Shown one piece after another: positions 10,212 to 64,000 of a DNA stretch of 64,000 nt. The notes beneath the pieces were generated by a model that did not search any database, was not told the origin of the DNA, and worked only from the letters and a program-made list of their open reading frames with translations. The stretch is from Nanobdellota archaeon (lineage in GTDB: Archaea > Nanobdellota > Nanobdellia > Woesearchaeales > JAGLGH01): contig JAYEPB010000078.1 in the NCBI GenBank assembly GCA_034723595.1, positions 9,592 through 73,591 of the forward strand. The letters are read 5' to 3'. The first letter of the stretch is position 1. The number at the start of each line of letters is the position of its first letter. The translations under genes were made by a program, and so were the position numbers.

Positions 10212-10637
10212 ATGACAAAACCATTTGTAGCAATGTTGGGTGATGACTCAAATAGAAATAAAGATATGAGACTTGTAAAAACAGTAGATGAATCTTATCT
10301 AAATGAAAATTTTGGAACATTATTGGATTATATTCTTAATCCAGGAGTTGATGAATTAAATTCAGGATATAATGATGATGAGACAAATTTTGCACAAACC
10401 TGGAAAGATCTTTATGATCAGAGCAAAAGCGAACCTAAAATTGAGATTGGTCTCTGCGCAATAGATAGAAATAAGCAATTTGTTCCATGTCCACTTCATA
10501 AGGTTCTTGGAGATTATAGTGATAGGTTTATAAAACCGATGAATGAGATTGGTGAAGATGGAAATGAATATAAGTATAATGGAATTGAATTGATTATAGC
10601 TGATCTTAGTGAAGGAGGATCAATGAGGTATTTGTAA
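10212..10637 (+). CDS. hypothetical 141-aa protein, paralog B. Gly-Gly lies 5 residues from the C-terminus (...ADLSEGG-SMRYL). First gene of the E1/JAB operon.
   Basis: ORF. Its stop overlaps the start of the next gene (TAATG). Shares the DESYLNENFGTLL block with 8818. Confidence 0.5.
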   Translation: MTKPFVAMLGDDSNRNKDMRLVKTVDESYLNENFGTLLDYILNPGVDELNSGYNDDETNFAQTWKDLYDQSKSEPKIEIGLCAIDRNKQFVPCPLHKVLGDYSDRFIKPMNEIGEDGNEYKYNGIELIIADLSEGGSMRYL

Positions 10638-14741: not shown

Positions 14742-14790
14742 TCTTGATGAGAGGGTATTGATGTTTTTTAATTAAAATGGGCAGTCCCTT

Positions 14791-18512: not shown

Positions 18513-19448
18513 ATGCGCAAGGAATTACACCCTTTTATGAAGCGAAAAGTAGTACGACACGGCTCAGCAACATTGACAATAAGCCTACCTTCAAAATGGG
18601 CAAAAAAGTTTGACATAAAGCAAGGGGATGAACTTGAGATTGAGGAGGAGGGAAGTTCATTAGCTATCTCAACTGAAAAATATTTAAAATTAAATGAATG
18701 TGAATTTGTTATTGATCCTGGAACAATTTCATACATTAGGAGTATTATTAGCAATTCCTATAAGAAAGGATATGATGTAATTAATTTAAAATTTGAAGAA
18801 CCAAATGTAATTGTAACAATTCAAAAAGTTGTTGATGGATTATTAGGATATGAGATAGTTGAACAAGGTCAAGGCTATTGTATTATTAAAAATGTTGCGT
18901 CAGGGCTAGAAACAGAATTTGAGTCTATGTTAAAGAAATCATTCTTTATGACTTTAACAATGGGAGAAATATGTCTTGAGGATATTAATAATAAAAAATT
19001 AAAAAACTATGAAGAAATTCGACAAATGAAAGATAATATAACAAAATTTACGAATTTCTGCAAAAGATTAACTAATAAGGCAAAAAAGAATCTTGACTCA
19101 AATTCATTTGCTTATCTTATTCTCTGGAGTTTAGAAAAGATTGCTAATGAATATAAATATATCTATCGTTATTTGTCTAAACATACAACAAATCAATTAT
19201 CAAAAAAAACATTGGATTATTTTAAGAATACAAATCAATTATTAAGGTTATATTTTGATGGATTTTATAAGAAAGATAATAAGATGATTAAAAATATTAC
19301 AACACTTAAAGATCAATATTTATATAAAGATTTATATGATGTATTAAAACAAACAAAACACCTAGATTCTGTTGTAATCCACCATCTTGCTAATATTATT
19401 AGAAGAGTATATGATATGACTGGTCCTTATTTTGGCATTTATCTCTAA
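18513..19448 (+). CDS. putative regulator with an N-terminal AbrB/SpoVT-type swapped-hairpin domain
   Basis: VVRHGSATLTISLPSKWAKKFDIKQGDELEI resembles AbrB/MazE-like DNA-binding barrels. The rest is helical and unassigned. Confidence 0.35.
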   Translation: MRKELHPFMKRKVVRHGSATLTISLPSKWAKKFDIKQGDELEIEEEGSSLAISTEKYLKLNECEFVIDPGTISYIRSIISNSYKKGYDVINLKFEEPNVIVTIQKVVDGLLGYEIVEQGQGYCIIKNVASGLETEFESMLKKSFFMTLTMGEICLEDINNKKLKNYEEIRQMKDNITKFTNFCKRLTNKAKKNLDSNSFAYLILWSLEKIANEYKYIYRYLSKHTTNQLSKKTLDYFKNTNQLLRLYFDGFYKKDNKMIKNITTLKDQYLYKDLYDVLKQTKHLDSVVIHHLANIIRRVYDMTGPYFGIYL

Positions 19449-22297
19449 ATCTTGTTTTTCAAAGCAACTAATTCATCTTCAACCTGCTGCATAGAATCAT
19501 ATCTTTTTTTAGGATTATATTCCAGGCATTTCATAATAACGCTTGCTAAATGAGGATTTATCTCTGGTTTTATATCCTGAAGACTCTTAGCTCTTAATTC
19601 TCCTTCATAAACCCCCTCTGCGAATTTAGTCTTATCTCCTTGTATATCCTGATAACTAATGGGTTTTTGTCCAGTCAAAGATTCATAAAGTAACACGCCA
19701 AAGCTATACTGGTCTGCTTTCTTGGTAGGAGATTCTCCACCAAGAATCCTTTCCGGAGCAGTATATTCTCTTACTCCTTTGATAGTACTTTGAGATTCTT
19801 TAAATCTTGAAAATGCTAAGTCCAAAAGAAATACCAACCCATTTCTGGCAACAATAACATTATCTTTTTTAATATCATTATGTGTAAATCCTTTTGTATG
19901 GATATAATTTAAAGAATATGCAGTTTTGGCAAAAACTTCAATTATTTCTTCTTCTGGTCGTTCTTGAGTGAAATATTGTTCAAATGTTTTTCCTTCAATA
20001 TATTCAGATATTAAACCAAGTGATTCTTTATCATTTAATTTCATTCTTTGGCTGCCTAAAAATTGTGGTAATGGTCTATATTGATAATTCTTAAAGTCAT
20101 CTCTAGACCTTGAAATTGTTTTGCTGTTTATTCTTTTTTCTTCCTTACTAATTTCATTAAGAGCTTTATCGATAGAGCCATATTTCTTAATTATTTTATC
20201 AACATTATCATTATCTAAATTTTTTGAAGGTAACTTTAAAATTTTAATAAAATCATCTTCAGTTTCATCCTGATCTCTTATTAAATAAATATTACTCCAC
20301 CCTCCATTTGTGAACTTATGAAGGATATCATAATCATCAATTTCAATCAGTGAACATTCTTTGAGTTCTTCAGATGATATACATTTATTTTCTTTTAAAA
20401 TTTGATTTAAATTTTTATAGTTCACATGTTTATTATGGACCAATTCTGTCAATTCAGAGATGATTTGCTCTTCAGTTTTATTCTGGGAGTATTTAGAATC
20501 AAGATAACTTTTAATAAATTCATATCCTTCATCTTCGATTGGTTTTATTTCAGGGGTGTTGACTGTTTCGGCAAGGTATCTTATTGATTTTGCAATTTCA
20601 CGAATAGAATGCATAGCATTAATTTTTTTTCTAAATGAATCTTTCTTATAAGACTGGATTCCTTTGTTATATAGTTCTAAAAACAAAGTTGGATTAATAT
20701 ATGCTAATTTGCCAAAACATTGATTAAATTTACTCTTATCAGGTTCCATAACTTCATCCCCCATCAATTCCCAATAATATTTATTTGCAGTTATAGAATC
20801 TTGCTCATAAAGATTAGGCAAATAATTAATCATATTCTGTTTTATCTTAGCATTTCCATTACCCCATAATTTTTTAAATAACTTCTTTGCAAACTTTTTA
20901 TTGGCTTGGAATAATTGTGGAAATACTTCTAAAACACTTAAGTTAACATCTTCCTCAGGATCTTTAATAGCTTTATAAAATAATTTTGATGCTAATATAG
21001 GATTTATTTCAAATAACTTGCCTAATGAATTAGCAGTGCCTCTTCTAACACTAGAATCATTATTGGCCATTCCTGCCAAATATAATTGTTCTAATTCATT
21101 ATTAGTCTGAAAATTAAGATAATCTATTTTAGTACTAATTAAATATCTTATGTGCTTCTGAAAACAACTTTCGCCTTCAGATATATCTTCAATTCCATTT
21201 TTATAATACTCAAAAGCCTTTCCAGGGCAGATATTAGAAATAGCAGAGAAGGAACTAAGAGTGTCCTTTTCCATACCAAAATTCCCTGTTAAACCATCTT
21301 CAAAATAAGTAACTGCAGTTTTAGGATTTACTTTAATTAAAGCATCAAGATGACCATAAAATGAAGATTTTATATCCTCATCAATAGTTTTCCCACCATT
21401 TTTCATTACATTCTCAAATAAAGTCTCTAAATATGTGGGTTGATACTTAGCTAATCTATTCAGAATTTCTCCTAATTCTCTTTCACTTAATTTATTCTTT
21501 GAAAATGTTTTCGTATAAATAATTGTCTTATCAATAACTTGTTTAGCTAATTCGAAATCTTTTGGAATCAAAGATTTAACTACTTCATGTAAATTATTTT
21601 CATAATCTAAGTAATCTTCATGAGATATTGCCATAGAGATTAAATCTTTTGTCAATTTAGGATTTGAAGCATAAGTATCTTTCAGGGATTTAATTAAATA
21701 CTGCCTTCCAGGCACTACATCTCCTGTTAAATCAGGGTCTGAAAAAAGCATATTAAATATTTTTTTAGATATCTTATGCCTATATTTTTTATCCAACATA
21801 GATTCATTTTTAATAAAATATCTATGAGCACCACATAAAAAAGGGCTAAGAGACCTCACAAATAAATTATTTTTATCCTTTATGTTTGGCTTATCTGCCA
21901 ATACCATTAATTTATTGTACATATATGATAAGGATTCATCATCACATTTCAAGAGAGAAGAGACTGCATATTCATTGATACCAGAAAGATATTGTTCTTT
22001 AGAAGAACCAACATAAAAACCCAAAGCTAATTTGGGATTAAATTTTATGAGCGCATCTAAGGATTCTACAAGCATTTCTTGTATATTCTTATTTTTAGTT
22101 TGCCAACCCTCTATATACAATTGACTAACTATTCGTTTTCTCCGTTCCCTTTCAATTTTATCTAATATTCTAGATTTTTGCTTAGAGTTCAAGCTAGAAT
22201 AAGATTCTTCAACACTAGACTCTAAAGATGCATGATTTTGACTCATATCCCATAGGAAGTGATAAAGAGTATTTAAATGTTTCTGTTTAGTTATCAC
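19445..22297 (-). CDS. eukaryote-like Ser/Thr protein kinase with a long N-terminal HEAT/ARM-type repeat region
   Basis: C-terminal about 300 aa with a Gly loop NGGWSNIY, Lys in IKILK, catalytic loop HNDIKKDN, DLA (DFG-like), APE and DQYSFGVLLYE. The N-terminal 600 aa has recurring repeats of the form (I/V)NP..A..(L/F)(Y/F)..(G/A)(I/L). Confidence 0.7.
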   Translation of the reverse strand: MITKQKHLNTLYHFLWDMSQNHASLESSVEESYSSLNSKQKSRILDKIERERRKRIVSQLYIEGWQTKNKNIQEMLVESLDALIKFNPKLALGFYVGSSKEQYLSGINEYAVSSLLKCDDESLSYMYNKLMVLADKPNIKDKNNLFVRSLSPFLCGAHRYFIKNESMLDKKYRHKISKKIFNMLFSDPDLTGDVVPGRQYLIKSLKDTYASNPKLTKDLISMAISHEDYLDYENNLHEVVKSLIPKDFELAKQVIDKTIIYTKTFSKNKLSERELGEILNRLAKYQPTYLETLFENVMKNGGKTIDEDIKSSFYGHLDALIKVNPKTAVTYFEDGLTGNFGMEKDTLSSFSAISNICPGKAFEYYKNGIEDISEGESCFQKHIRYLISTKIDYLNFQTNNELEQLYLAGMANNDSSVRRGTANSLGKLFEINPILASKLFYKAIKDPEEDVNLSVLEVFPQLFQANKKFAKKLFKKLWGNGNAKIKQNMINYLPNLYEQDSITANKYYWELMGDEVMEPDKSKFNQCFGKLAYINPTLFLELYNKGIQSYKKDSFRKKINAMHSIREIAKSIRYLAETVNTPEIKPIEDEGYEFIKSYLDSKYSQNKTEEQIISELTELVHNKHVNYKNLNQILKENKCISSEELKECSLIEIDDYDILHKFTNGGWSNIYLIRDQDETEDDFIKILKLPSKNLDNDNVDKIIKKYGSIDKALNEISKEEKRINSKTISRSRDDFKNYQYRPLPQFLGSQRMKLNDKESLGLISEYIEGKTFEQYFTQERPEEEIIEVFAKTAYSLNYIHTKGFTHNDIKKDNVIVARNGLVFLLDLAFSRFKESQSTIKGVREYTAPERILGGESPTKKADQYSFGVLLYESLTGQKPISYQDIQGDKTKFAEGVYEGELRAKSLQDIKPEINPHLASVIMKCLEYNPKKRYDSMQQVEDELVALKNKI

Positions 22298-22504: not shown

Positions 22505-22960
22505 TTATTCTTCGCTTGTTGCTAGTGCTGACGTAAGGGATGCTACATTTCTTAATGTATCATCAATCTTTTTTAAAGCTTCAGCATGTTTTAATTCGAG
22601 AAATTTAGTCATTTCCGTAGGTGCTTTCAAGTTTTTTAATTTCTTTTCTTCTCTTTCCATTAATATAAGAGATTCTTTTAGCAAATGCGCATCATAAATC
22701 ATATCAACTAAAACCAAACCTAAAGATTCTAATGCATTGTCCATCACGTTGACTAATTCTTTTTCGTCTTTTTCTACATCTCTTGAGTTTCCTGCTTCTA
22801 TTGCTTTATCAAGATCTTTAAGATATTTTTTTACATTAGCGATATTTTTTTCAAGATCCCTTACTTTTTGGAATTCCTGTCTTCTCCTCATAAAATCTCC
22901 AATAAGCTTTTTCTTTGTCTCTAAAGCTATTAATCTTGCTTTATCTGCTACATCTGCCAT
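22505..22960 (-). CDS. coiled-coil protein (151 aa), function unknown
   Basis: Heptad-rich charged sequence. No enzymatic motif. Confidence 0.35.
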   Translation of the reverse strand: MADVADKARLIALETKKKLIGDFMRRRQEFQKVRDLEKNIANVKKYLKDLDKAIEAGNSRDVEKDEKELVNVMDNALESLGLVLVDMIYDAHLLKESLILMEREEKKLKNLKAPTEMTKFLELKHAEALKKIDDTLRNVASLTSALATSEE

Positions 22961-22966
22961 TTTTAT

Positions 22967-23113
22967 TCATCCTCCGATAAAAGGTATCTTCCAATTGCCT
23001 GACATTATCATATATGTCAGAAATCCACCTAATATTAATCCTATAATAATTCCTATAACAAATCCGAATCCTATTGGGCTTGTTATCACTCCTTTTTTTG
23101 AATTGAACATCAT
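22967..23113 (-). CDS. small single-pass membrane protein (48 aa, MMFNSKKGVITSPIGFGFVIGIIIGLILGGFLTYMIMSGNWKIPFIGG)
   Basis: Manually translated; not in the ORF track because it is under 60 aa. ATG at 23113. Ends 6 nt before the coiled-coil gene start. Confidence 0.35.
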   Translation of the reverse strand: MMFNSKKGVITSPIGFGFVIGIIIGLILGGFLTYMIMSGNWKIPFIGG

Positions 23114-23114
23114 T

Positions 23115-23249
23115 TTAACAGCTAATATAAGGAACTTTTAATATTCCTTTCATTATAATATACATTAATATCATGCCAAGTATAAATGCAAACACAATCC
23201 ATGTAAATGGATGAAGGATAATTCCTTTTTTTTGTTTGAATAACTTCAT
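23115..23249 (-). CDS. small single-pass membrane protein (44 aa, MKLFKQKKGIILHPFTWIVFAFILGMILMYIIMKGILKVPYISC), paralog of the 48-aa gene
   Basis: Manually translated. Shares the KKG(I/V)I...P and K(I/V)P(Y/F)I pattern with the neighbour. Its stop is 1 nt from the next ATG. Confidence 0.35.
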   Translation of the reverse strand: MKLFKQKKGIILHPFTWIVFAFILGMILMYIIMKGILKVPYISC

Positions 23250-23358
23250 GAATATCACCTCTTATTTTTATCTTTTAAGTAAGAAGTATTTAAACCTTAT
23301 TATTTTGTGATTTGATTTTTTCAAAATCAAATCAATAAGTAATGCGAAATGTTTATAT

Positions 23359-23835
23359 ATGTGTGATTTTATTTTGTATGTTATTATGATATCAGCAACC
23401 AAATCAAATCCTGGAGAGATGATCTCTAAACTAGGAGCAGCAGCCAATTCTATGAAAGAAAAGATGAAGAATCGTCAGGCAGGCGATACAAATGCAGATA
23501 AAGAGATTCTGGAGGTAATCTTCAGCGCAGATGATAATATAAAGAAACTTGCATATAGCTTTCTTCTCATGCTTGAACAAGACGGCAGGCTGAATGCAGC
23601 AAATATCCCTGTTCTTGAAGCGATTGAAAAGATGGATGATAAGATGAGGAAGCATGCGAAGCATGGCATAAAAGAGGATGATTATATCAGAAGAGTGGCA
23701 GCTCATTTTGAAGCAATGACAGAAATAAAACTCAAAAAAGCGGCAAAACTTGCAAAACATATGGGACTTGCAAAAAGATACGAAGAGATGGCAAAAGAGC
23801 ATGAGAGGATTGCTCAGGCAGAATCAAAGCCGTAA
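23359..23835 (+). CDS. hypothetical alpha-helical protein (158 aa)
   Basis: ORF only. Confidence 0.35.
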   Translation: MCDFILYVIMISATKSNPGEMISKLGAAANSMKEKMKNRQAGDTNADKEILEVIFSADDNIKKLAYSFLLMLEQDGRLNAANIPVLEAIEKMDDKMRKHAKHGIKEDDYIRRVAAHFEAMTEIKLKKAAKLAKHMGLAKRYEEMAKEHERIAQAESKP

Positions 23836-23878
23836 TATTTATATAGTCTTAATATAAATTGTATATCATGGTGACCTT

Positions 23879-25564
23879 ATGAGAAAGAAGCAGTTGTTAA
23901 TATTCCCTATTGTATTTAGTATATTATCTTCTATTGTATTTGCTGCGCAAAAGAACTGGCTAAAAGTCTTGCTTGAACCATTCTTTGGCTGGAATATCGC
24001 AGCAACATATCAGCAGGCTGCTTCATTTATTGATTTCGTATTATACATATTCATTTTTCTATACATTACAAGATACGCTATATCAAAACGATTTGAAGGA
24101 GCGACTGCAAAAAGTCTTAGTGTTGTTATAGCAATTGTGCTTGCCGTAGGTATGTCTGTTTTTGAAAGGATGTTTGATTTTAACCTTGGGAAGCTTGCCC
24201 CTCTTGCTGGCCTTATATTATTCGCGGTCATCGCAATGATAGCGTTCAATGTCATCAAGGGATTTGGAGCAGGAAGTGCAAGTGCAGGAGCATGGGCTTA
24301 TCTTCTGCTTTATGGGATTCTGAGCGCAACTGCATCAAAATATCTTACCTGGTTGTATGATAAAGTTCCATTCTTTGAAGGCATTCTTTATATTGGCGTG
24401 ATTATTTCTATATTTGGCATACTTAAAGGTCTTTGGTCTATTGTGCCTATCACAGGAGGTCAGACAACTGGAGCAGGCAAAAAATTGTGGGATATTACTA
24501 AGAAAGGCGCCTCAGGAGTCAAAGGCACACTTGATTCATGGAAGGAAAAGAGGCGGCAGAAGATTGCAGCTAAAGAACAAGAGATAAGAAACACCAAAGC
24601 AGCAATAAGCAGAATAGAAACTGATATAAATAATCTAGGAGATATTAGTGATAAGTTATGGGAAAAAGATGAATATCTTCAGAAAGAGAAACAGGAAAGA
24701 TTGAGATTATTAAGTAATGAATATAATCGTATACGATCAATTAATCAAGAGATTAACAGAATAAATAATTCAATCCAAACCTTCCGTGAGATGGATAGAT
24801 TTGGAAATGATAAAAGAGTAGCAGAAGCAGAACAGAAACTGACTGATTATAATCAAAAAGTTCAACAGTATTTGACAGAATTATCACATATCATTATAGA
24901 ATTAACTTCTTTTATCGATGAAGAGAAAAATAATCTAAGAAATCAAATTAGAGAATCAAATGAAACAAATGCAAGATTAAATGAAAAGATTAATCAGTCT
25001 AAAATGCTAATAACAGAACTTAAAAATGAATTAAAAGATATTTCAAGATTACTTCAAACTGAGAAAGATAAAAATAAAAAATCTGAATTAGAAAATAAAT
25101 CAAAAGTTATTCAAAAGAATATTAAAGAAGTGAAAGATGAAGAGAAAAAGGTCGTTAAAACCTTAAAGATAGAAACAGAAAAAAAGAAAAATATGGAAAA
25201 AGCAATTGACAAAGCAGTTGAAGAGACAAATAAATTCAAAGAGCTTGAAGAATTAGTAAAAGAAATTGATGGTATAATCAAAGGAAAAAAATACAAAAAA
25301 AGAGTTCTGAAGTTGCCCCAAACAGCCTCTGCTCAAAAAAAAGTGCTTAAAGCAGAGATTCAGAAATTGCATGAGACATATAAGACAAAACAAGATATTT
25401 TTTTCGAAAAGATGAATAAACTATACAAAATAGACAAACAATATAATGGTTTCCATAATAAAATCAGAGACTTAAATAAAGAGTTAAAGGTATTAGAGAA
25501 GGCAGGATCACCGGATGACGAAGAGAAGATAAAAATATTCCAAAAGTCATTTCCTAAAAAATAA
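23879..25564 (+). CDS. membrane-anchored coiled-coil protein, paralog 1 (multi-TM N-domain plus a long K/E-rich coiled coil)
   Basis: N-terminal about 190 aa with 4-5 TM helices and a conserved LLEPFFGWNIAATYQQAASFIDFVLY block, followed by about 350 aa of heptad-rich charged sequence. Confidence 0.55.
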   Translation: MRKKQLLIFPIVFSILSSIVFAAQKNWLKVLLEPFFGWNIAATYQQAASFIDFVLYIFIFLYITRYAISKRFEGATAKSLSVVIAIVLAVGMSVFERMFDFNLGKLAPLAGLILFAVIAMIAFNVIKGFGAGSASAGAWAYLLLYGILSATASKYLTWLYDKVPFFEGILYIGVIISIFGILKGLWSIVPITGGQTTGAGKKLWDITKKGASGVKGTLDSWKEKRRQKIAAKEQEIRNTKAAISRIETDINNLGDISDKLWEKDEYLQKEKQERLRLLSNEYNRIRSINQEINRINNSIQTFREMDRFGNDKRVAEAEQKLTDYNQKVQQYLTELSHIIIELTSFIDEEKNNLRNQIRESNETNARLNEKINQSKMLITELKNELKDISRLLQTEKDKNKKSELENKSKVIQKNIKEVKDEEKKVVKTLKIETEKKKNMEKAIDKAVEETNKFKELEELVKEIDGIIKGKKYKKRVLKLPQTASAQKKVLKAEIQKLHETYKTKQDIFFEKMNKLYKIDKQYNGFHNKIRDLNKELKVLEKAGSPDDEEKIKIFQKSFPKK

Positions 25565-26893
25565 TTGGCTAAAACTATGGCGTTTGCATCTAACATATTG
25601 GACAGATTATTAGAGCCTTTTTTTGGCTGGAATATAGCAGGAACATATCAGAGTGCTTCACAATTCATAGATTTTGTCCTTTATCTTATTTTCTTCATAT
25701 CAGTTACGCGTTTTGCGTTAGCAAAAAGATTTGATGCAAAGACGCAGAGACCCATTACTATCATGTTAGGCATTGCTCTTGCGATAGGGATGTCATTCTT
25801 TGGAATGAGATGGGGATTTAGCATAGGTGATTTAGCGCCTTTGGCAGGATTATTATTTTTGTTTGTGCTTGGCATGATGTTCTTTAAACTTATCAAAGAC
25901 ATGGGTGATAGCGCCCCAGGAGCAGGAGCATTTGCATTCCTTCTTATCTTCTTTTCAATGACTGCAATAGTGCCAAGCTTCTACAGCTGGATAATTCAAA
26001 AAGTCCCATTTCTAGAGGCTCTGCTTTCTATAGGTGTAATTTTGGCAGTGTTTATAGCTGTGAAAGAGATGTTTGGGCTTATAACTGGTGGAGGAGGGGC
26101 AAAAGCAGATGGGGATATGGGTTTGAGTGATAGCCAAGAATATCTGAAGAAGAAAGAAAAGAAAAAAAGAGAAATTGTTGAAAAAGGAGTTGAAAGATTA
26201 AGGCAAGAAGCTGATGAAGTAAGAGAAAAGGCCGCAGTTGCAAAGACTCCAGAGGAGAAAAAAGCATATAAAAAAAAAGCAGATGATAATAGGGCAAAGG
26301 CTGATGAGAAGTTGGAAGATGAACTAACTTCAAGAGGTTCTATTGGAGGTATTCCAGTTAGATCAAGGTTATCTAGTGCAGAACTAATAAAAAGAAGAAA
26401 AGAATACCTCAAAAGGTTAGAAGACCTTGAAAAAGAGAAATTGGAAGAAATAGAAACAATTAAAAAAGAATTAATAGAATTTCAAGAAAAATTAGAACAA
26501 ATGAACCTACGGAATTATGAAGATTTATCAGATGGAAATAAGGAAATCTACATAGATATAGGAAGGAATATTCAAAATAAATTATTAAAATTAGTAAATA
26601 CTTTGTTTAAACTTGAAAAATGTGAAATTAAAGACTTAGAATTTCTGAAAAAATTAAGATATAATGTTGATACTAGGCAAATATCAAGATTTTATTTAAA
26701 CATAATCGGCAATGAAGAGATGATAAAGAAGGAATATAATTTAGTTATGCTTGTAAAAAGATTTTCAGAGAAGATAGTTAAAATTATGGAAGAACAAAAT
26801 AAGATTCCTCATCTCCCTGGATTAATTTCAAGAATAATACAAGTAGTTGATAAATTAAAAGAAATCAATGAAGAGTCATTAAGTAGATTATGA
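25565..26893 (+). CDS. membrane-anchored coiled-coil protein, paralog 2
   Basis: Same architecture and the same LLEPFFGWNIAGTYQSASQFIDFVLY block. Likely true start is the ATG at 25577 (MAFASNIL). Confidence 0.55.
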   Translation: MAKTMAFASNILDRLLEPFFGWNIAGTYQSASQFIDFVLYLIFFISVTRFALAKRFDAKTQRPITIMLGIALAIGMSFFGMRWGFSIGDLAPLAGLLFLFVLGMMFFKLIKDMGDSAPGAGAFAFLLIFFSMTAIVPSFYSWIIQKVPFLEALLSIGVILAVFIAVKEMFGLITGGGGAKADGDMGLSDSQEYLKKKEKKKREIVEKGVERLRQEADEVREKAAVAKTPEEKKAYKKKADDNRAKADEKLEDELTSRGSIGGIPVRSRLSSAELIKRRKEYLKRLEDLEKEKLEEIETIKKELIEFQEKLEQMNLRNYEDLSDGNKEIYIDIGRNIQNKLLKLVNTLFKLEKCEIKDLEFLKKLRYNVDTRQISRFYLNIIGNEEMIKKEYNLVMLVKRFSEKIVKIMEEQNKIPHLPGLISRIIQVVDKLKEINEESLSRL

Positions 26894-27940
26894 TTGATTT
26901 AAATCTATATTTTTATAATTCACTTTTTCCCCATCCACAATCAATAGACCTGCTTTATTATCACTAGCGCATCCTGGATTATAGAATAATGTTGATGTAT
27001 TAGTATTCTCTGCTATAAGATTTTCTTCAATATCATGCGCATTATGGCTAGCATAAGGTATGTGGTTGCTTATGACCTTATTGATATTATATTTATTATA
27101 CCATTCTTTTAGGAACTTGCTTCCACAATTTTCTTTTGATTCAATAGCAAAAAGAGAACAGTTGTCATTCCTAAATAAATCAGCTGCTTTTTGCAACTGC
27201 GCATTAAGATTATCCTCTTCCTCTGAATTGTCAATAATTTTAAAACCATTATTTTTCACTTCTTCTTTATGGTTTAATGGTACTGTTCCTATTTGTAGAT
27301 TACTTAGATTGCCTTGCTCATCTGGTTGAAGGAGTATTAGTTTATAGAAATGCGAATAATCAACACTGGTATTTTTATCAAATTTGCTGGGAACATGATT
27401 AAATGCAATAGTATTACTCTGATTTTTATCTTTTAACATTTCATCCAGTGAATTAGGATTTGTTACATAAACAAGATCATTTTCAAGACCTCCAAATTCT
27501 CTGATTTTCTCAATATCAGAAGGTGAAATTTCTACATATTCATCGCCAAGAAAAACATATAATCCACTTTCAGCAGTATCAGTTTCAATAAATTGCTTCC
27601 CCTTATTAGTCCCTGGTAAAAATAATAAGTCGTGATCCTCTTTTGTAAATATTTGGTCATCACTAGTTACAATATCTACAATATTTTGATATTCTTTCTT
27701 AATTTCAGTTAATGCATCAAAATAATCAAGTACAGTCTCATGACTGCCTGGCTGTACATAAACAGGCTTTTGAGTTTCCCCCATTCTTTTAAGAGTATTA
27801 TATATAATCTGTTTGTTATCACCTATATCTCCATTAAGAATCCATGCATCTACACCGTCATTAGTTATTTTATCAATTAACTCATCAAGTGGTGTGTCTG
27901 TTCCATGAATATCTCCTATGACTCCGTATTTTGTTACCAT
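26888..27940 (-). CDS. calcineurin-like metallophosphoesterase
   Basis: Motifs GDIHG, NGDIGDN (the GDxxDRG position) and PGSHE (the GNHE position). Confidence 0.6.
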   Translation of the reverse strand: MVTKYGVIGDIHGTDTPLDELIDKITNDGVDAWILNGDIGDNKQIIYNTLKRMGETQKPVYVQPGSHETVLDYFDALTEIKKEYQNIVDIVTSDDQIFTKEDHDLLFLPGTNKGKQFIETDTAESGLYVFLGDEYVEISPSDIEKIREFGGLENDLVYVTNPNSLDEMLKDKNQSNTIAFNHVPSKFDKNTSVDYSHFYKLILLQPDEQGNLSNLQIGTVPLNHKEEVKNNGFKIIDNSEEEDNLNAQLQKAADLFRNDNCSLFAIESKENCGSKFLKEWYNKYNINKVISNHIPYASHNAHDIEENLIAENTNTSTLFYNPGCASDNKAGLLIVDGEKVNYKNIDLNQS

Positions 27941-28101
27941 CTTAAATGAGTATTGGATAACTTATATTTAAATGTTTGGTTTTTGTTACTCTCGCCAAGT
28001 AACAAATATGCCTTCAAAGAAATATCAATACTACTCACCATATAAACCTTGCACAATTAAAGAACAATCTGATTATATTTAAATCAAAAACTTCTTAGCT
28101 C

Positions 28102-28650
28102 TCAGCTAATCTTAGCCTTAACTTTCTCAAATCCAAAAGCAAGAATTCCTCCGGATATCACAGTTATCCATTGCATAATGCCCATTGCGCTAAGGAATAT
28201 AACTGGCAGAAATCCGAATTTAAACATTACAAAAGCTGCTATGAATAAGAATATTGATTTAACAGCAGCCCCAATAATTAAAGCAGAAAAATAATCCCAT
28301 TTCTTATGTATATTCAAGAACTTGAATGCACCCACTAACAGGCTGTTTCCAATCCAAATAAAAGCAATCATATAAATCAAGAATGGGGTAAAACTTCCAA
28401 AAATCAATCCAGCAGCCAATACACCAAGTGAGGGGAGCATAATTACAGGCAGTAATTTGTAGCCTTTGACGCTCATGGCAGCACTTATAAGCATAGCATT
28501 TACAATAGTTCCAACAAGCCATTGCGGATGCGCCAGCATGAAAGGCAGGAAGAAACCTGCTAAGGAATATAGCACAACTTCTATTGCCTCATGTCTTATG
28601 CTCCATTTGTATCTCTGAAGGTTTGCAAGTTTGTTAATATTGATATACAT
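28102..28650 (-). CDS. polytopic integral membrane protein (about 6 TM), family unassigned
   Basis: Hydrophobic throughout; could be an ECF/S-component-like transporter subunit, but no motif was verified. Confidence 0.4.
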   Translation of the reverse strand: MYININKLANLQRYKWSIRHEAIEVVLYSLAGFFLPFMLAHPQWLVGTIVNAMLISAAMSVKGYKLLPVIMLPSLGVLAAGLIFGSFTPFLIYMIAFIWIGNSLLVGAFKFLNIHKKWDYFSALIIGAAVKSIFLFIAAFVMFKFGFLPVIFLSAMGIMQWITVISGGILAFGFEKVKAKIS

Positions 28651-28738: not shown

Positions 28739-29179
28739 ATGCCTGATAAACTTGATAAAATAATTGAGAATAAGAAACTGCTGCTTCCAATCCTGACTGA
28801 AATTCAGGACAAATACGGCTATATCTCTGAATCTGTTGTCAGGCAGCTCAGTAAAAAGATAAATATACCTATGGCTGAGATATATGGTGTTGCTACATTT
28901 TATTCATTCCTTTCTACAAAGCCACAGGGCAAGAACATAATTCACATCTGCAATAGTCCATCATGCTATCTTAATGGTTCGCTTGATATAATCAGATTCC
29001 TTGAAAAAGAACTAGGTATAAAATCTGGTGAAACAACTGATGACAAGCTGTTTTCGCTGCATATAGGCTCATGCATTGGATGCTGTGATAAGGCTCCTGC
29101 TATGCTTGTCAATGGAAAATTGTATTCAGATCTAACAAAAAGAAAGATGAGGGTAATCATACAAAAATGCAGATCCTAG
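28739..29179 (+). CDS. NuoE/HoxE/HndA-like [2Fe-2S] thioredoxin-like subunit of an NAD(P)H-dependent hydrogenase
   Basis: Cys pattern CNSPSC ... SCIGCC typical of the 24-kDa subunit family. Immediately upstream of, and overlapping, the NuoF-like gene. Confidence 0.8.
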   Translation: MPDKLDKIIENKKLLLPILTEIQDKYGYISESVVRQLSKKINIPMAEIYGVATFYSFLSTKPQGKNIIHICNSPSCYLNGSLDIIRFLEKELGIKSGETTDDKLFSLHIGSCIGCCDKAPAMLVNGKLYSDLTKRKMRVIIQKCRS

Positions 29180-30288
29180 AGAAATCAGAACTTAAAGCCT
29201 GGGAAAAGGCAAATGCTATGAAGCCAGAAGAAGTAATTGCATTGCTTAATGATAAGGGTCTGACTGGTCGTGGTGGAGCATGCTTTCCTGCAGGAAAGAA
29301 ATGGGGATTTGCATTGGATGCTGAAGGAGATGAGAAATTTGTCATATGCAATGCTGATGAAGGTGAGCCAGGAACATTCAAGGACAGATTTATAATCGAA
29401 AATAATCCTGAAACTCTTATTGAAGGTATATTGATAGCATGTAATACAGTAGGGGCAAAGCAGGCATATATCTATTTAAGAAGAGAATACAGGTATCTTG
29501 AATTTGACCTTAACAAAATCATAAAAAAAGTTATAAAACAAGCAGATACAGACATCAGCATAGAAATTGTTCTTGGGGCTGGAGCTTATATCTGCGGTGA
29601 AGAGACAGCAATAATAAATTCAATTGAAGGGAAAAGAGGCCAGCCATATTACAAGCCGCCTTTTCCTGCTGTCAAGGGTCTGTTCGGGAAGCCTACTGTA
29701 ATCAATAATGTAGAGACTCTTGCAAATGTTCCTCTTGCAATAATCAAAAAAGATTGGGATTCAAGCCTTAGGCTTTTTTCTCTTTCAGGGAATCTGAAAA
29801 AGCCAGGAGTATATGAACTGTCATTAGGGACATCTTTTAATGCAATTGCGCAGTTTGGCAAACCTGAAAAAAAGCTAAAAGCAATTTATTTCGGCTGTGC
29901 AGGGGGATGTATTCCTTTTAATCAGAAACATAAGATAGATACTGAGGTAATTAATTCAACTGGATGCATGCTTGGTTCATGCACAATGATTGTTGTTGAT
30001 GAAAGCCAAAGCATAGTTGATGTTGCAGTAAACATAGCAAAATTCTTTGAATATGAATCATGCGGCAAATGCACACCATGCAGAGAAGGCAATATGAGGG
30101 TTCTTGCGCTGCTGGAGAAGATATCGCTGGGATATGCCAATATGGAAGATATTGCACTTCTTGAGGAGTTGTGCTGTGTGATAAAGGACAGCTCATTGTG
30201 CGGGCTTGGGCAAAGCTCAACAATTCATCTATTAACTGCATTGAAACATTTTAGGGAGGAATTTGAAGAAAAATGCAAATCACGCTGA
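29167..30288 (+). CDS. NuoF/HoxF/HndC-like flavoprotein subunit (NAD(P)H and FMN binding, 4Fe-4S)
   Basis: GRGGACFPAGKKWG NADH-binding glycine motif, FMN-binding region and an ESCGKCTPCREG 4Fe-4S motif. Confidence 0.85.
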   Translation: MQILEKSELKAWEKANAMKPEEVIALLNDKGLTGRGGACFPAGKKWGFALDAEGDEKFVICNADEGEPGTFKDRFIIENNPETLIEGILIACNTVGAKQAYIYLRREYRYLEFDLNKIIKKVIKQADTDISIEIVLGAGAYICGEETAIINSIEGKRGQPYYKPPFPAVKGLFGKPTVINNVETLANVPLAIIKKDWDSSLRLFSLSGNLKKPGVYELSLGTSFNAIAQFGKPEKKLKAIYFGCAGGCIPFNQKHKIDTEVINSTGCMLGSCTMIVVDESQSIVDVAVNIAKFFEYESCGKCTPCREGNMRVLALLEKISLGYANMEDIALLEELCCVIKDSSLCGLGQSSTIHLLTALKHFREEFEEKCKSR

Positions 30289-31946
30289 ACAAAAAAAAGA
30301 TAGAGTGTGAAAAAGGAAAGACAATCCTTGATATCGCAAAAGAAAAAGGAATAAGAATCCCTACATTATGCTATCAGGAAGATTTCCATCCTGAAGCAAG
30401 ATGCAGGATATGTCTTGTTGAAGTAAATGGGAAACTTATGCCAGCTTGTTCTACCCATGTATGGGAAGGGATGGTTATTGAGACAGATACTGAAAAAGTG
30501 AAAAAAACAAGGCGCATGAACCTTGAGCTGATGATGGCAGACCATCAGAAAGCATGTTTTATTGAAAGCAGGACGCATGAGTTGTGCAGGATTGTTGCAG
30601 AAGAAGAAATAGGTAACATCAGATTCGAGCCTGTAAAAAAACATACTCCAGACATAAAAGGAAGGGCTGTAGTAAGGGATCCAAATAAGTGCATCAGCTG
30701 CGGCAGATGTGTCCAGGCATGCAGAGATACGCAGAATATTACTGCAATAGATTTCGCCCATAGAGGTCATAGGGAGAAAGTCACACCTTATTTTGGAAAG
30801 AGCCTGAATGAGGTATATTGCATAAAGTGCGGGCAATGTATACTCAGCTGTCCAGTAGAAGCTATTGTGGAACAGAGCCATATTGATATTGTAGTCCAGC
30901 ATCTTGCTGATCTTAAGAAACATGTTGTTGTCCAGACAGCTCCTGCGATAAGGGCATCATTAGGAGAAGAATTTGGCTATAAGCCTGGCATGCTTGTAAA
31001 AGGCAAGATGGTGGCAGCTGCAAAAGCTTTGGGATTTGATAAAGTATTTGACACAAACACAGGCGCAGACCTTACAATAATTGAAGAGGCAAATGAACTG
31101 CTTGAAAGAGTCAAAAACAATAAGCCTCTGCCTATGTTTACATCATGCTGTCCAGCCTGGGTTAAGTATATCGAGCACTTCAGGCATGATCTTATACCTC
31201 ATCTTTCAACATGCAAGAGTCCTCATGAGATGCTTGGAGCAGTAGTCAAGACATATTATGCAGAAAAGGCAGGCATAAACGCAGATGATATTGTCATGGT
31301 CAGCATTATGCCATGCACTGCAAAGAAGTTTGAGGCATCAAGAGAAAAGCTGAAAGGTAATGTAGATTATGTTCTTACAACAAGGGAATTCGCTAAGCTT
31401 ATCAAGATGAAGAATATTGATTTTGGTAAGCTTGGTGACGAGACATTTGATGATCCATTAGGCATATCTACTGGAGCAGGAGCAATTTTCGGAGCAACAG
31501 GCGGAGTGATGGAAGCTGCGCTAAGGACAGCTTATGAGACAGCTACAGGCAAAAGCCTGACAAAGATAGAATTTGATCAGGTAAGGGGTGTAGCTGGAAT
31601 AAAGAAAGGGTCTATATTTCTGAATGACCTTGAAGTTAAATTTGCAGTGGCGCATGGCATGATGAATGCATGCAATCTTATTGAGTCATACAAAGATTTT
31701 CATTTTATTGAGGTTATGGCATGTCCTGGCGGATGCATAGGCGGAGGAGGTCAGCCAATCCCAACAACATGGGATATCAGGCAAAAAAGGATAAATGCAA
31801 TCTATGAAGAGGATAGGAACCTGCCTCTCAGGAAATCGCATGAAAACCCTGCTTTGAAAAAAGTATATGAGGAATTCTTAGGAGATGCAGGCGGGCATAA
31901 GGCTCATGAATTGCTGCATACTGGGTATGTTAAGAGGGGGTTGTGA
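30273..31946 (+). CDS. hydA: [FeFe]-hydrogenase catalytic subunit HydA (N-terminal 2Fe-2S and 4Fe-4S ferredoxin domains plus the H-cluster domain)
   Basis: H-cluster signatures L1 TSCCPAW, L2 MPCTAKKFE and L3 EVMACPGGCIGGGGQP are all present. N-terminal plant-type ferredoxin Cys pattern and two CxxCxxCxxxCP motifs. Confidence 0.85.
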   Translation: MQITLNKKKIECEKGKTILDIAKEKGIRIPTLCYQEDFHPEARCRICLVEVNGKLMPACSTHVWEGMVIETDTEKVKKTRRMNLELMMADHQKACFIESRTHELCRIVAEEEIGNIRFEPVKKHTPDIKGRAVVRDPNKCISCGRCVQACRDTQNITAIDFAHRGHREKVTPYFGKSLNEVYCIKCGQCILSCPVEAIVEQSHIDIVVQHLADLKKHVVVQTAPAIRASLGEEFGYKPGMLVKGKMVAAAKALGFDKVFDTNTGADLTIIEEANELLERVKNNKPLPMFTSCCPAWVKYIEHFRHDLIPHLSTCKSPHEMLGAVVKTYYAEKAGINADDIVMVSIMPCTAKKFEASREKLKGNVDYVLTTREFAKLIKMKNIDFGKLGDETFDDPLGISTGAGAIFGATGGVMEAALRTAYETATGKSLTKIEFDQVRGVAGIKKGSIFLNDLEVKFAVAHGMMNACNLIESYKDFHFIEVMACPGGCIGGGGQPIPTTWDIRQKRINAIYEEDRNLPLRKSHENPALKKVYEEFLGDAGGHKAHELLHTGYVKRGL

Positions 31947-60999: not shown

Positions 61000-61962
61000 A
61001 TGGCTCTGCTGGATGTTAAAGATAGAAAAATACTGTATGAACTTGACTTCAATTCAAGAAAAACATATTCTGAAATTGCAAAAAAGATCAGAATGAGCAA
61101 AAGAGGAGTAGAATATAAAATTAAAAATCTTGAGAAAAAACAAATAATTTTAGGTTATGCACCAATAATAAATATTTCAAAATTAGGTTATTTATACTGC
61201 AGAATTTTTGTTAAATTTCAGAATATTACAAAAGATAAGTTAAAGGAAATAGAACATTATATTATCACAAATAAAAAAATTGGTTGGTCAATCAAATATT
61301 ATGGAAAATATGACAATGGATTTACAATTTGGGCGAAAAATATCAGCGAATTTAAATCAATCGCAAATGAATTTTATTCCAGATTTAGTACATATATTAA
61401 AGAAAGAACTGAATCAATAGCTACAAATGTTTTCTTTTATAAAAATAGATATTTGTTAAAAGATGATTGTATGGATTATCTTGAGTTAATTGAAACAGAA
61501 GAGAAAAGAAATCTTGATAATCTTGACAAAAACATATTGATAGCTCTTTCAAAGAATCCTCGAATTTCACAAATAGAAATATCAAGAATCTTAAATGTAT
61601 CTATAAAGACAGTTTCAAGCAGATTAAAGAAATTGATAAAGGAAAATATTTTATTAGGTACAAGACCAACAATAAATCATGAACTCTTAGGATACACATA
61701 TTATAAAATTTTTATGAACTTAGTTAATTTTAATCCACAGAGAATAAAACAATTTGAATCATATATTGCTTCAAATCATCGGACAATATATATAATAAAA
61801 GCAATGGGGACCTGTGATTTAGATATAGAGATTATGGTTGAGTCAAATAAAGAATTAGTCCATTTTATTGAAGATTTACAGAATAAATTCCCAACTTTAA
61901 TAAAAGATTATCAAACAATGCTATTAACAGATACAGTAAAAATAACTTATTTGCCTTTTTGA
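61000..61962 (+). CDS. tandem-domain Lrp/AsnC-like transcriptional regulator
   Basis: Two HTH-plus-RAM-like units (DRKILYELDFNSRKTYSEIAKKIRMSKRGVEYKIKNLEKKQIIL and LDKNILIALSKNPRISQIEISRILNVSIKTVSSRLKKLIKENILL). Same architecture as 33768-34706. Confidence 0.55.
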   Translation: MALLDVKDRKILYELDFNSRKTYSEIAKKIRMSKRGVEYKIKNLEKKQIILGYAPIINISKLGYLYCRIFVKFQNITKDKLKEIEHYIITNKKIGWSIKYYGKYDNGFTIWAKNISEFKSIANEFYSRFSTYIKERTESIATNVFFYKNRYLLKDDCMDYLELIETEEKRNLDNLDKNILIALSKNPRISQIEISRILNVSIKTVSSRLKKLIKENILLGTRPTINHELLGYTYYKIFMNLVNFNPQRIKQFESYIASNHRTIYIIKAMGTCDLDIEIMVESNKELVHFIEDLQNKFPTLIKDYQTMLLTDTVKITYLPF

Positions 61963-61992: not shown

Positions 61993-63465
61993 ATGGCGTT
62001 ACTAACAAAATCTAAATACATTGCAGGTCTTCAGTGTCCAAAGCTATTATGGTTCTTGATTAATGATAAGGGCAAGGTTCCTGAGCCTTTAAGAGAGGCT
62101 CAATATAGGATGGATGTTGGGACAGAGGTAGGAGTTCTTGCTATAAAATTATTTCCTGGTGGGGTAAGCATTCCAACTAATGATTTTAAGGCAAACTTGA
62201 ATATTACGAAAGAGAATTTATCAAAAAATATGCCTCTTTTTGAGGCTGGAATCTTGGCTAATAATTGTTTTTCAAGAATTGATATACTAAAACCAAACAA
62301 AGATGGTTCTTTTGATATTATTGAGGTTAAATCTGGCACTAAAGTTAAAGAAGAGAATATCCATGATGTATCTTTTCAGAAATATTGTTGTGAGATGGCA
62401 GGATTAAAGATTGCCAGGTGTTCTTTATGTTTTATAAATAATCAGTATGTCAGAGAAAAGGAATTAAATATTAATGAATTATTCACAATTCAGGATATTA
62501 CTGCTGAAGTTGTTCAAGCGCAACAAGGTATTCAAGAACGAATTGATGAGTTCTTTAATATTATTAAATCTCCAAATTTACCTTCAGTTTCAATAGGAAG
62601 ACATTGTAATTCTCCTTATTCTTGTAATTTAATGGATGAATGTTGGGGATTCTTGCCAAAGAATAATGTCTTCACATTATATATGGGGGGAAAGAAAAGC
62701 ATTGAACTATTCAGTAAAGATATTCATAGTATTGCAGATATTCCTGATGATTTTAAACTAACAAATAATCAGGGGATTCAGAGGAAATGTGAACAAACAG
62801 GTGAGGTTCATATACAGCCTTTTGAGATTAAACAATTCCTGAACACTTTAATTTATCCACTTTATCATCTGGATTTTGAAACATTTTCACCTGCTATTCC
62901 AAGATATGATTATTCAAGACCTTATCAAAAAATACCTTTCCAGTTTTCACTGCATATTGAACAAGAAGATGGTTCAACAGAGCACATATCCTTTTTAGCT
63001 GAGGGTAAAGAAGACCCAAGACCTGCATTTTTAGCCAGATTAAAAGAGGTTATGGGAACACAAGGAAGTGTTGTAGTCTATAATCAAGCCTTTGAAAAAT
63101 GGGTGTTAAATACTCTGGCAAGAGACTTTCCAGAATACAAAGGTTGGGTAAATGAAATATTGCTAAGAGTAGCAGATCTTTTAATCCCTTTCAGAAGCTT
63201 TAATTATTATCATCCAAGCCAGCAGGGAAGCGCATCTCTTAAAAAAGTCCTTCCAGCACTTACAGGAGAAAGCTATGAAGGAATGGAAATCGCAGATGGA
63301 GGAGATGCAAGTCTGAGATATGAGGAAATAACCTTTGGTGATATAGCTGAAGAAGAAAGAGCAAAAGTTAGAGAAAATCTTGAGAAATATTGTGAACTTG
63401 ATACTTGGGCAGAAGTGGTTATTATAAGAAAATTAAAGGAAATTGTCGGAAATAGTAACATTTAA
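61993..63465 (+). CDS. PD-(D/E)xK nuclease-superfamily protein (RecB-like, DUF2779-type), tentative
   Basis: RIDILKP...FDIIEVKSG gives a D...D-x-E-x-K arrangement. The family call is from memory of the architecture only. Confidence 0.35.
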   Translation: MALLTKSKYIAGLQCPKLLWFLINDKGKVPEPLREAQYRMDVGTEVGVLAIKLFPGGVSIPTNDFKANLNITKENLSKNMPLFEAGILANNCFSRIDILKPNKDGSFDIIEVKSGTKVKEENIHDVSFQKYCCEMAGLKIARCSLCFINNQYVREKELNINELFTIQDITAEVVQAQQGIQERIDEFFNIIKSPNLPSVSIGRHCNSPYSCNLMDECWGFLPKNNVFTLYMGGKKSIELFSKDIHSIADIPDDFKLTNNQGIQRKCEQTGEVHIQPFEIKQFLNTLIYPLYHLDFETFSPAIPRYDYSRPYQKIPFQFSLHIEQEDGSTEHISFLAEGKEDPRPAFLARLKEVMGTQGSVVVYNQAFEKWVLNTLARDFPEYKGWVNEILLRVADLLIPFRSFNYYHPSQQGSASLKKVLPALTGESYEGMEIADGGDASLRYEEITFGDIAEEERAKVRENLEKYCELDTWAEVVIIRKLKEIVGNSNI

Positions 63466-63773
63466 ATTCTCAGTTCTGATTTCAAATTTAGGATAAATAA
63501 CTTTTGAGGTAAAAAGTTAATCTCTTATTTGCGAATGAAAGTGAGACATAAGTGAGCCATAGGGTTTAATACCCAGACCATTATAGGTTGGGGGAATAGT
63601 TCATTTATTGCAGGGAAAATAACATAATTCCTTATATGGCATCATTTATTCCTGCTGGAAAAACTGCTGCTAGGACAGACAATAAAGTTAGCAGGAAAAT
63701 CTTGTTCTTTGAAGATAGAAAAAGTAGAATCTATTGCAAGAATTGATGTATGGCTATTTTTTTAAAGAAAAAA

Positions 63774-63892
63774 TAGCCCCGCTCGGAAATACGTGTGATG
63801 TCTGAGACTGAGTATTTTGCTCATACAAAACATTTCGAACCGAGGTCCCAGGACCCAAAATCCTAGATGATTGGCCACTACACTACGGGGCT
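63774..63892 (-). tRNA. tRNA-Gln (anticodon UUG) with an insertion (presumed intron) of about 46 nt in the T-loop
   Basis: Manual fold of the reverse complement: acceptor AGCCCCG/CGGGGCT with the A1-U72 pair typical of archaeal tRNA-Gln; discriminator A; no encoded CCA; T6 trailer. D-arm GTGT-AGTGGCCAA-TCAT. Anticodon stem TAGGA/TCCTG with loop TTTTGGG (U33, UUG, G37). Variable loop GGAC. T-stem CTCGG/CCGAG enclosing TTCGAAA plus 46 extra nt. Confidence 0.75.
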
Positions 63893-64000
63893 ATGTAAGT
63901 TAGTAGGAAGAAAGGATTATTTATAAAGTTTTCCAAAACTTAAGAGCTTCTTCTTCAATAAAGTGAAGCTTGGCAGGGATGATTAGGCAGTGTAGAGGTT

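Follow-up and report, generated by a model that had tools for sequence, protein, structure and literature searches.

Introns in the T-loop, the D-loop and the acceptor stem of archaeal tRNA genes have been described in general terms (PMC3241643, PMC12397907), and position 59/60 is listed as a recurrent non-canonical insertion site (PMC4090602). Within the DPANN superphylum, the pre-tRNA-Cys(GCA) of ARMAN-2 carries an intron at 59/60 whose motif is of the relaxed hBH type; it is cleaved in vitro by the epsilon2 splicing endonuclease (EndA) of that archaeon, and the tRNA-Pro(GGG) of ARMAN-2 has introns at both 53/54 and 59/60 (PMC3239211). EndAs of DPANN archaea carry an L3 loop that has been linked to more tRNA gene disruption, one Woesearchaeota genome being among those surveyed, and Kaneta et al. 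considered that the incomplete predicted tRNA sets of DPANN point to undetected disrupted genes (PMC5829648). A full-text search for literature on tRNA introns specific to DPANN or Woesearchaeota returned nothing on such genes beyond that last study. Here we report a tRNA-Gln(UUG) gene with a 46-nt insertion at 59/60 of its T-loop, found at positions 63774-63892 (minus strand) of a 64-kb stretch of contig JAYEPB010000078.1; this whole stretch is called the window below. A first-pass annotation of the same DNA had described the insertion site as rare, noncanonical and known from a few archaeal lineages. The description is fair, although the find is less unusual than it implied, because 59/60 is a listed recurrent site (PMC4090602) and has already been documented in DPANN (PMC3239211). 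For the same reason, namely the precedents in ARMAN-2 and in reviews, the insertion does not represent a new kind of element.

The segment 63774-63892 encodes a real archaeal glutamine tRNA that is interrupted in its T-loop. The gene is complete, with a 119-nt pre-tRNA body and no encoded CCA, as seen in a manual cloverleaf and in ARAGORN after removal of 46 nt, and its ends are exactly those proposed by the first-pass annotation. The 5' exon (63834..63892, minus strand, as are all parts of the gene) comprises tRNA positions 1-59, and BLAST alignments to uninterrupted orthologues end at 63834. The 46-nt intron at 59/60, AUGUUUUGUAUGAGCAAAAUACUCAGUCUCAGACAUCACACGUAUU, occupies 63788..63833, its boundary being drawn from the T-loop UUCGAAU of the orthologues and from bulge-helix-bulge (BHB) geometry. 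The 3' exon (63774..63787) holds positions 60-73, that is, U60, CCGAG, CGGGGCU and the discriminator A.

The clean cloverleaf that had been claimed for this gene can be read throughout in the sequence. In the manual fold, the acceptor stem is AGCCCCG/CGGGGCU, with an A1-U72 pair and discriminator A73. The D arm is intact in the window and consists of a GUG/CAU stem with a U13·U22 mismatch and a loop of 9 nt. The anticodon stem UAGGA/UCCUG closes the loop UUUUGGG, which contains U33, G37 and the anticodon UUG at 63858-63856, and the variable loop is the 4-nt GGAC. The T stem, CUCGG/CCGAG, is a perfect 5-bp helix that encloses 53 nt instead of 7 (UUCGAA, the 46 inserted nt and U), so that the proposed insertion of about 46 nt is also correct.

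Standard scans miss this gene, a risk that the first-pass annotation had rightly foreseen. ARAGORN reported no tRNA in the whole 64-kb window with its intron option either off or on, the latter because the option models anticodon-loop introns only. Likewise, no Rfam tRNA match reached the gathering score in the window and none appeared at E<=10 across 63600-64000, where the only matches were weak snoRNA and sRNA ones (E 0.77 to ~10), far below their gathering scores and outside the intron. Once the 46 T-loop nt are deleted, ARAGORN calls tRNA-Gln(ttg), and the joined exons make up a complete canonical tRNA, as is expected when a BHB-type intron is removed. The product spliced at 59/60 differs by one T-stem base (A64 in the window, G64 in the orthologue) from the uninterrupted gene of locus L041, which ARAGORN calls as tRNA-Gln(ttg) and which obtains 49.8 bits with Rfam RF00005 (cutoff 29). 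In searches of the window for further tRNAs, a T-arm motif matched at 2 places, where chance alone would predict 3.6, and a custom finder for 59/60-interrupted genes returned the Gln gene only.

Homologues were collected in a genome scan that covered one genome per GTDB species and used the anticodon-arm-to-T-loop sequence as its pattern. Among the 42 loci returned, almost all belong to DPANN metagenome-assembled genomes (MAGs) labelled Woesearchaeota or Nanoarchaeota; the remainder comprises four bacterial loci and some that bear the labels Methanosarcinales, Thermoplasmata or Thermococcus. The gene is uninterrupted at 34 loci and interrupted at eight (L002, L016, L022, L023, L028, L034, L037 and L042). 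Interrupted copies were also found on five metagenome contigs (L044-L048), giving 13 distinct interrupted genes, with the window gene identical to that of L042. All 13 are interrupted at one and the same bond, A59/U60, by inserts of 27-53 nt. Orthologues with and without the intron thus exist and the interruption sits at a fixed position, as befits a BHB-type intron. Moreover, the occurrence of an identical 119-nt gene in L042 and of 12 other distinct genes interrupted at the same point indicates that we are dealing with a tRNA gene and not with a chance cloverleaf. Of the 13 interrupted orthologues, ARAGORN overlooks 12 and models the remaining one wrongly. A scan of viral contigs for interrupted tRNA-Gln found none.

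Other interruptions were seen in the same set of genes. Thirteen loci (L002, L005, L006, L007, L011, L014, L019, L021, L022, L025, L034, L039 and L044) are interrupted in the D-loop or D-arm or just after position 9, and in L002, L022, L034 and L044 such an interruption occurs together with the 59/60 intron. Second interruptions of this kind, a habit of the lineage, favour a genuine intron in the window gene as well. In L043 (5655-5771), from the single-cell genome of a member of the Nanoarchaeota, an uninterrupted tRNA-Gln(UUG) gene is directly followed by a tRNA-Gln(CUG) gene that has a 44-nt insert at 59/60, which indicates that both Gln isoacceptors make use of the site.

Three excisions would restore a T-loop of 7 nt in the window gene, yielding UUCGAUU if made at 58/59, UUCGAAU at 59/60 and UUCGAAA at 60/61. 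The uninterrupted hits read GGTTCRAA-TCC in 34 of 34 cases, position 60 being U, and we chose 59/60 because it is the sole excision that reproduces their UUCGAAU T-loop. The first-pass annotation had named the neighbourhood of 59/60 correctly; the junctions it drew, TTCGAAA/TGTTTTG...GTATTT/CCGAG, correspond to 60/61, and the evidence puts the cut one base earlier. As refined, the junctions read TTCGAA/ATGTTTTG...CGTATT/TCCGAG. The predicted mature junction, A59-U60, would accordingly be embedded in ...GGUUCGAAUCCGAG....

The same position is expected from the geometry of canonical introns. A BHB consists of a 4-bp helix between two 3-nt bulges, and canonical precursors hold anticodon nt 34-35 inside that helix (PMC4090602). 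At 37/38, the helix is formed by positions 32-35, the 5' bulge by 36, 37 and the first intron nucleotide (i1), and the 3' bulge by two intron nt and position 38, with the 5-bp anticodon stem as the outer helix. Since the T arm also has a 5-bp stem and a 7-nt loop, moving this geometry onto it leads to 59/60, the site that corresponds exactly in position to 37/38 of the anticodon arm. Only 59/60 places both cuts between the second and third nt of 3-nt bulges that flank a 4-position helix. That the cut would fall between the second and third bulge nt is suggested by analogy, and presumably holds here as it does in general.

Excision at one of the neighbouring bonds, 60/61 or 58/59, of an otherwise genuine intron seems to us very unlikely. 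ARAGORN accepts all of these deletion products as tRNA-Gln, and in the four homologues whose intron begins with U, cutting at 59/60 and at 60/61 gives an identical mature sequence, so that sequence cannot separate the two there. However, 60/61 would leave A60 in the window gene and in eight other homologues, against U60 in 34/34 uninterrupted hits, and 58/59 would leave U59 in the window. The central-helix nt, checked by hand, are moreover unpaired at 58/59 (GUUC/CACG) and at 60/61 (UCGA/GUAU), and shifting the pairing register by ±1 lowers the paired cells in the homologues from 83% to 39-45%.

With excision at 59/60, the window junctions fold into a relaxed BHB with both splice sites in bulges; the need for such a motif had been pointed out in the first-pass annotation. 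The T stem serves as the outer helix h. In the central helix H, U54 U55 C56 G57 (63836..63839) face CGUA, intron nt 41-44 (63790..63793), in the pairs U54-A, C56-G and G57-C and a U55·U mismatch, that is, three pairs out of four. The 5' splice-site bulge is formed by A58, A59 and A(i1) at 63833..63835, with a predicted cut at 63834/63833 by analogy with the canonical cut after positions 36 and 37 and before i1 (PMC4090602). The 3' splice-site bulge is formed by U, U and U60 at 63787..63789, with a predicted cut at 63788/63787. The inner helix h' pairs UGU (63830..63832) with ACA (63794..63796), 3 bp in all, and continues into the intron as an imperfect stem. About 1% of mono- or dinucleotide-shuffled introns reach at least three pairs in H together with at least three in h'. 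The unconstrained minimum free energy (MFE) fold contains h', with a pairing probability of 0.54-0.58, and leaves the T-loop and the 3' end of the intron as a 7x7 internal loop; in the unconstrained ensemble, C56-G and G57-C have pairing probabilities of ~0.22. Two further pairings were considered and rejected. A helix running unbroken through the junction (G57-C61, A58-U60 and beyond), drawn by hand, is absent from the MFE fold and not conserved in L045, and a pairing of the intron core GGUCUC with the exon GGGACC obtains no support from the window copy.

The homologues tell more about these helices than the energies of a single sequence. RNAalifold run on six full introns aligned with MAFFT gave an uninformative consensus, the variable middle being misaligned, and pairs were therefore counted in an ungapped, junction-only alignment of the interrupted genes, with registers in which the partners were moved by 1-3 columns as a control. 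In the proposed register, 83.2% of the cells hold standard pairs, against 32-47% in the slid registers; 26 cells are changed on both sides, against 5-10, and the covariation score is 0.292, against 0.019-0.120. None of 500 shuffles matched the observed paired fraction or covariation score; this control ignores kinship among the sequences, a weakness from which the slid registers are free, and they give the same answer. Double changes occur at all seven pair positions of h', for example in UGUAGUA/UACUACA, UGCAG/CUGCA, UUGCA/UGCAA and UGAAGC/GCUUCG.

The central helix has all four pairs in eight genes, just as the strict rule for this helix has it, including L023, in which UUCA/UGAA pairs A57 with U in a compensatory double change. 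It has three in the window gene, L045 and L048, each with the U55·U mismatch. The C56-G pair is invariant in the 13 genes, whereas at 57 a G-C pair is found in 12 of them and an A-U pair in the other. The bulges are equally constant: A58 and A59 do not vary, i1 is A or U in 13/13, and the 3' bulge is made of two intron nt and U60 in all 13 homologues.

Gene anatomy, the position of the interruption, BHB-compatible junctions, and conservation and covariation among the homologues are thus matters of observation, and they lead us to consider the locus a functional DPANN tRNA-Gln(UUG) gene with a 46-nt endonuclease-type intron at 59/60 of the T-loop, with a probability of about 0.88. Several observations count against this reading. 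The central helix of the window gene is imperfect at U55·U and departs from the strict hBHBh' motif, which requires a fully paired 4-bp helix and is the substrate of alpha4 and alpha'2 EndAs that have no accessory loops; forming the full BHB costs ~3 kcal/mol (-31.4 vs -34.6), nearest-neighbour energies favouring the open internal loop; the central helix retains only two of four pairs in L002 and L034; and Pfam and NCBIfam scans found no EndA or RtcB domain among the scanned window open reading frames (ORFs) of at least 150 aa. Because of the mismatch and the energy cost, we describe the window junction as a relaxed and not a strict BHB, and given the lack of those domains among the scanned ORFs, the enzymatic part of the mechanism rests on the literature.

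For transcription, cleavage, ligation and the type of endonuclease, we infer the following course of events. The gene would be transcribed from the TATA-box promoter upstream, with termination at a run of six T. In the precursor, U54-G57 of the T-loop would pair with intron nt 41-44 (CGUA) in a short central helix that stacks on the T stem, leaving A58-A59 and the first intron base in one 3-nt bulge and the last two intron bases and U60 in the other, and the inner stem would begin with the pairing of intron nt 2-4 with nt 38-40. The archaeal EndA would then cut each bulge between its second and third nt, and an RtcB-type ligase would join the exons into a 73-nt tRNA with the T-loop UUCGAAU, to which CCA would be added afterwards.

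If instead the 46 nt were an insertion or the scar of a mobile element that is never removed, the gene would be dead and another locus would supply tRNA-Gln(UUG). Standard scanners do reject the gene and its central helix is imperfect, and the 3' halves of tRNA genes are known attachment sites. In L018 (~1384-1500), the tRNA 3' end TCCTGGCGGGGCTAT is directly repeated 73 nt downstream, in what looks like the attachment (att) site of an integrated element. Nevertheless, the exons of the window gene are flawless and its putative promoter and terminator intact. No direct repeat of the tRNA 3' part surrounds a long insert there, no exon part is repeated inside the 46 nt, unlike the duplication in L018, and a mobile element would need more than 46 nt. 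The sharing of this insertion site by 13 distinct genes, in which compensatory changes have preserved the helices at the junctions, also speaks against a dead gene.

Comparison with L042, a contig of 3.7 kb from a MAG that bears the label Nanoarchaeota, also speaks to this point. The two genes have 0/119 differences, counting the exons and all 46 intron nt, although 5 of the 24 positions between the TATA-like element and the mature 5' end differ (a divergence of 20%) and the outer flanks are unalignable. As gene, intron and downstream hairpin are identical while the spacer has diverged, a decaying pseudogene is not what we would expect to see, and altogether we regard a dead gene as highly improbable. 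In two other homologues, L030 and L041, an inverted partial copy of the 5' half of the T arm (GGACCTCGGTTCGAA...) lies downstream of the tRNA and ends at ~59/60.

A last alternative is that, in place of an endonuclease-type intron, the 46 nt are a self-splicing intron of group I or II, or a box C/D guide-RNA intron such as that of archaeal tRNA-Trp. Their length exceeds the 12-25 nt median of archaeal tRNA introns (PMC4090602), and the homologues share a conserved loop motif inside the intron. On the other hand, the insert is far below the size of group I or II introns, whose core takes hundreds of nt, and there is no credible Rfam match even at E<=10. The 46 nt contain neither a pair of RUGAUGA and CUGA boxes nor a tandem G·A of the k-turn kind, and the intron stem, read manually, is Watson-Crick with a single A·G mismatch. 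We therefore hold both forms of this alternative to be extremely improbable.

The loop motif, A(A/G)AGUACGCGGUCUCAG, is 14-17 nt long; L045, L048 and L037 share it without any difference, and L047 and L022 have it in near-identical form. The stems beside it have been rewritten by compensatory changes, and the flanking DNA of those lineages is unalignable. The window copy, AAAUACUCAGUCUCAG, lies at 63803-63819 (minus strand) in the predicted terminal loop and, like the L042 copy, has three substitutions; over its whole length, the L045 intron differs from that of the window at 5/46 positions. Rfam gives no match to the motif, which lacks C/D boxes and has no further copy in the fetched loci. 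Ten exact 15-mer matches of the intron core were met in viral contigs, with GC contents of 0.41-0.67 and no tRNA context, and were set aside as chance. One may speculate that the T-loop intron of DPANN tRNA-Gln is more than a passive spacer and has a sequence-specific role of its own. It could be bound by a factor that acts in maturation or quality control, give rise to a stable, possibly circular, excised RNA, or delay the formation of the T-loop/D-loop elbow until splicing. Such a role would fit the loop motif that stays unchanged amid rewritten stems and the intron that is invariant with respect to L042 next to a spacer diverged by 20%, but we consider it unlikely.

Taken as an endonuclease-type intron, the window insert is closest to those of ARMAN-2, with which it shares the superphylum, the 59/60 point in the T-loop and, in the case of tRNA-Cys, a relaxed motif. 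The two differ in the tRNA species concerned (Cys there, Gln here) and in the DPANN lineage, the relatives of the window gene being labelled Woesearchaeota or Nanoarchaeota. The junctions are also relaxed in different ways: the Cys intron is of the hBH type and has no inner helix, whereas the window intron has both bulges and the inner helix, its weakness being the U·U in the central helix. Finally, ARMAN-2 has an epsilon2 EndA, whereas alpha4 enzymes bearing the L3 loop have been reported from other DPANN lineages (PMC5829648).

The non-canonical introns of Crenarchaeota, Thermoproteales and Nanoarchaeota (Marck and Grosjean 2003; Sugahara 2008; reviewed in PMC4090602) are likewise of the endonuclease type and are sited wherever a BHB forms. 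Strict and relaxed (hBH, HBh') junctions are found among them, and several introns may interrupt one gene, as in the orthologues that have an added D-loop intron. They differ from the window intron in being processed by an (alpha-beta)2 EndA with a Crenarchaea-specific loop and in their median length of 12-25 nt, against 46 nt here. With the canonical 37/38 intron, the window intron has in common the 5-bp stem, the four loop nt that pair with the 3' end of the intron, and a 3-nt bulge of two exon nt and i1. Unlike it, the window intron sits in the T arm, where the elbow nt U54, U55 and C56 are sequestered in the precursor. Because these nt belong to the T-loop/D-loop elbow, the L-shape of the tRNA would not be able to form before splicing.

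The case reveals no new mechanism and is ordinary in kind for DPANN, and its use lies in annotation. Since ARAGORN and the Rfam tRNA model miss the interrupted gene, DPANN bins annotated with such tools will seem to lack tRNA-Gln(UUG). The window gene is thus a concrete and comparatively supported instance of the undetected disrupted DPANN tRNA genes foreseen on the basis of incomplete tRNA sets (PMC5829648). In addition, the genes described here extend the known cases by a family of 59/60 introns within a single tRNA species, spread over a DPANN radiation. As strict and degraded central helices stand side by side in this family, it provides a natural series for the degree of BHB relaxation that DPANN endonucleases tolerate.

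The gene is accompanied by putative signals for transcription. A TATA-box-like element, TTTATAAATA, lies at 63918..63927 (minus strand), -35 to -26 from the mature 5' end, with a purine-rich AAAAC upstream of it. The element is conserved in L042 despite the 5/24 differences in the spacer downstream, and those of the remaining interrupted orthologues whose 5' region is simple have an A/T-rich TATA-like element about equally far upstream, suggesting that TTTATAAATA acts as a promoter. Directly after the discriminator there is a run of six T (63768..63773, minus strand), which we take to be an archaeal terminator; most orthologues have a T-run at the same point.

A perfect 11-bp inverted repeat with a 5-nt loop, GGCTATTTTTT / AAAAAATAGCC, spans 63752..63778 on both strands and overlaps the gene, the last 5 tRNA nt and the six T pairing with the downstream AAAAAATAGCC. 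This hairpin is identical in L042 and appears as a compensatory variant in L045 (GGGCTATTTTTC / GAAAAATAGCCC), and hairpins of the same build and other sequences follow the orthologous tRNA in L031, L034 and L035; with the window counted, a hairpin after the tRNA is present in 7 of the 46 genes checked. The repeat may be a bidirectional terminator. In seven other loci (L007, L009, L010, L013, L025, L033 and L039), a GGACTC motif (GAGGACTCTT...) is located 20-30 nt after the tRNA; it is absent from the window.

Several features point to a Woesearchaeota-like DPANN archaeon as the probable host. An archaeal origin, as proposed in the first-pass annotation, is supported by the putative TATA-box promoter at -35 to -26, the A1-U72 pair, the oligo-T terminator and the orthologues in DPANN MAGs. 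The MutS region of the window has 74% nucleotide identity to the contig of L003, from a MAG labelled Woesearchaeota, and the only exact protein match found was to a contig in the metagenome assembly of a Logan run (SRR26901924). The GC content of the window is 28-40%, and its genes include those of TrmB and Lrp/AsnC regulators, of a KaiC-like ATPase, of MutS, of a LeuA/CimA-like synthase and of an [FeFe] hydrogenase.

Beside the tRNA lies the gene of a DUF2779 protein (61993-63465), which gave a weak match to Cas4-like (PD-(D/E)XK) nucleases, and an Lrp/AsnC-like gene is found near the tRNA both in the window (61000-61962) and in L016, a shared neighbour that likewise fits the proposed host. 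Farther away, 10637-16824 and 22505-28650 are runs of large ORFs (151-677 aa), mostly without a Pfam or NCBIfam match, the main exception being a ThiF-family domain in the ORF 12100-13581. A 950-aa ORF at 19445-22297 has a C-terminal Ser/Thr kinase domain only. At 29167-31946, a gene for a NuoF-like flavoprotein (Complex1_51K) is followed by one for a group A6 NADH-dependent [FeFe] hydrogenase (NCBIfam 789.9 bits), a content that deserves mention because the closest relatives of the tRNA gene and of the MutS region are MAGs labelled DPANN.

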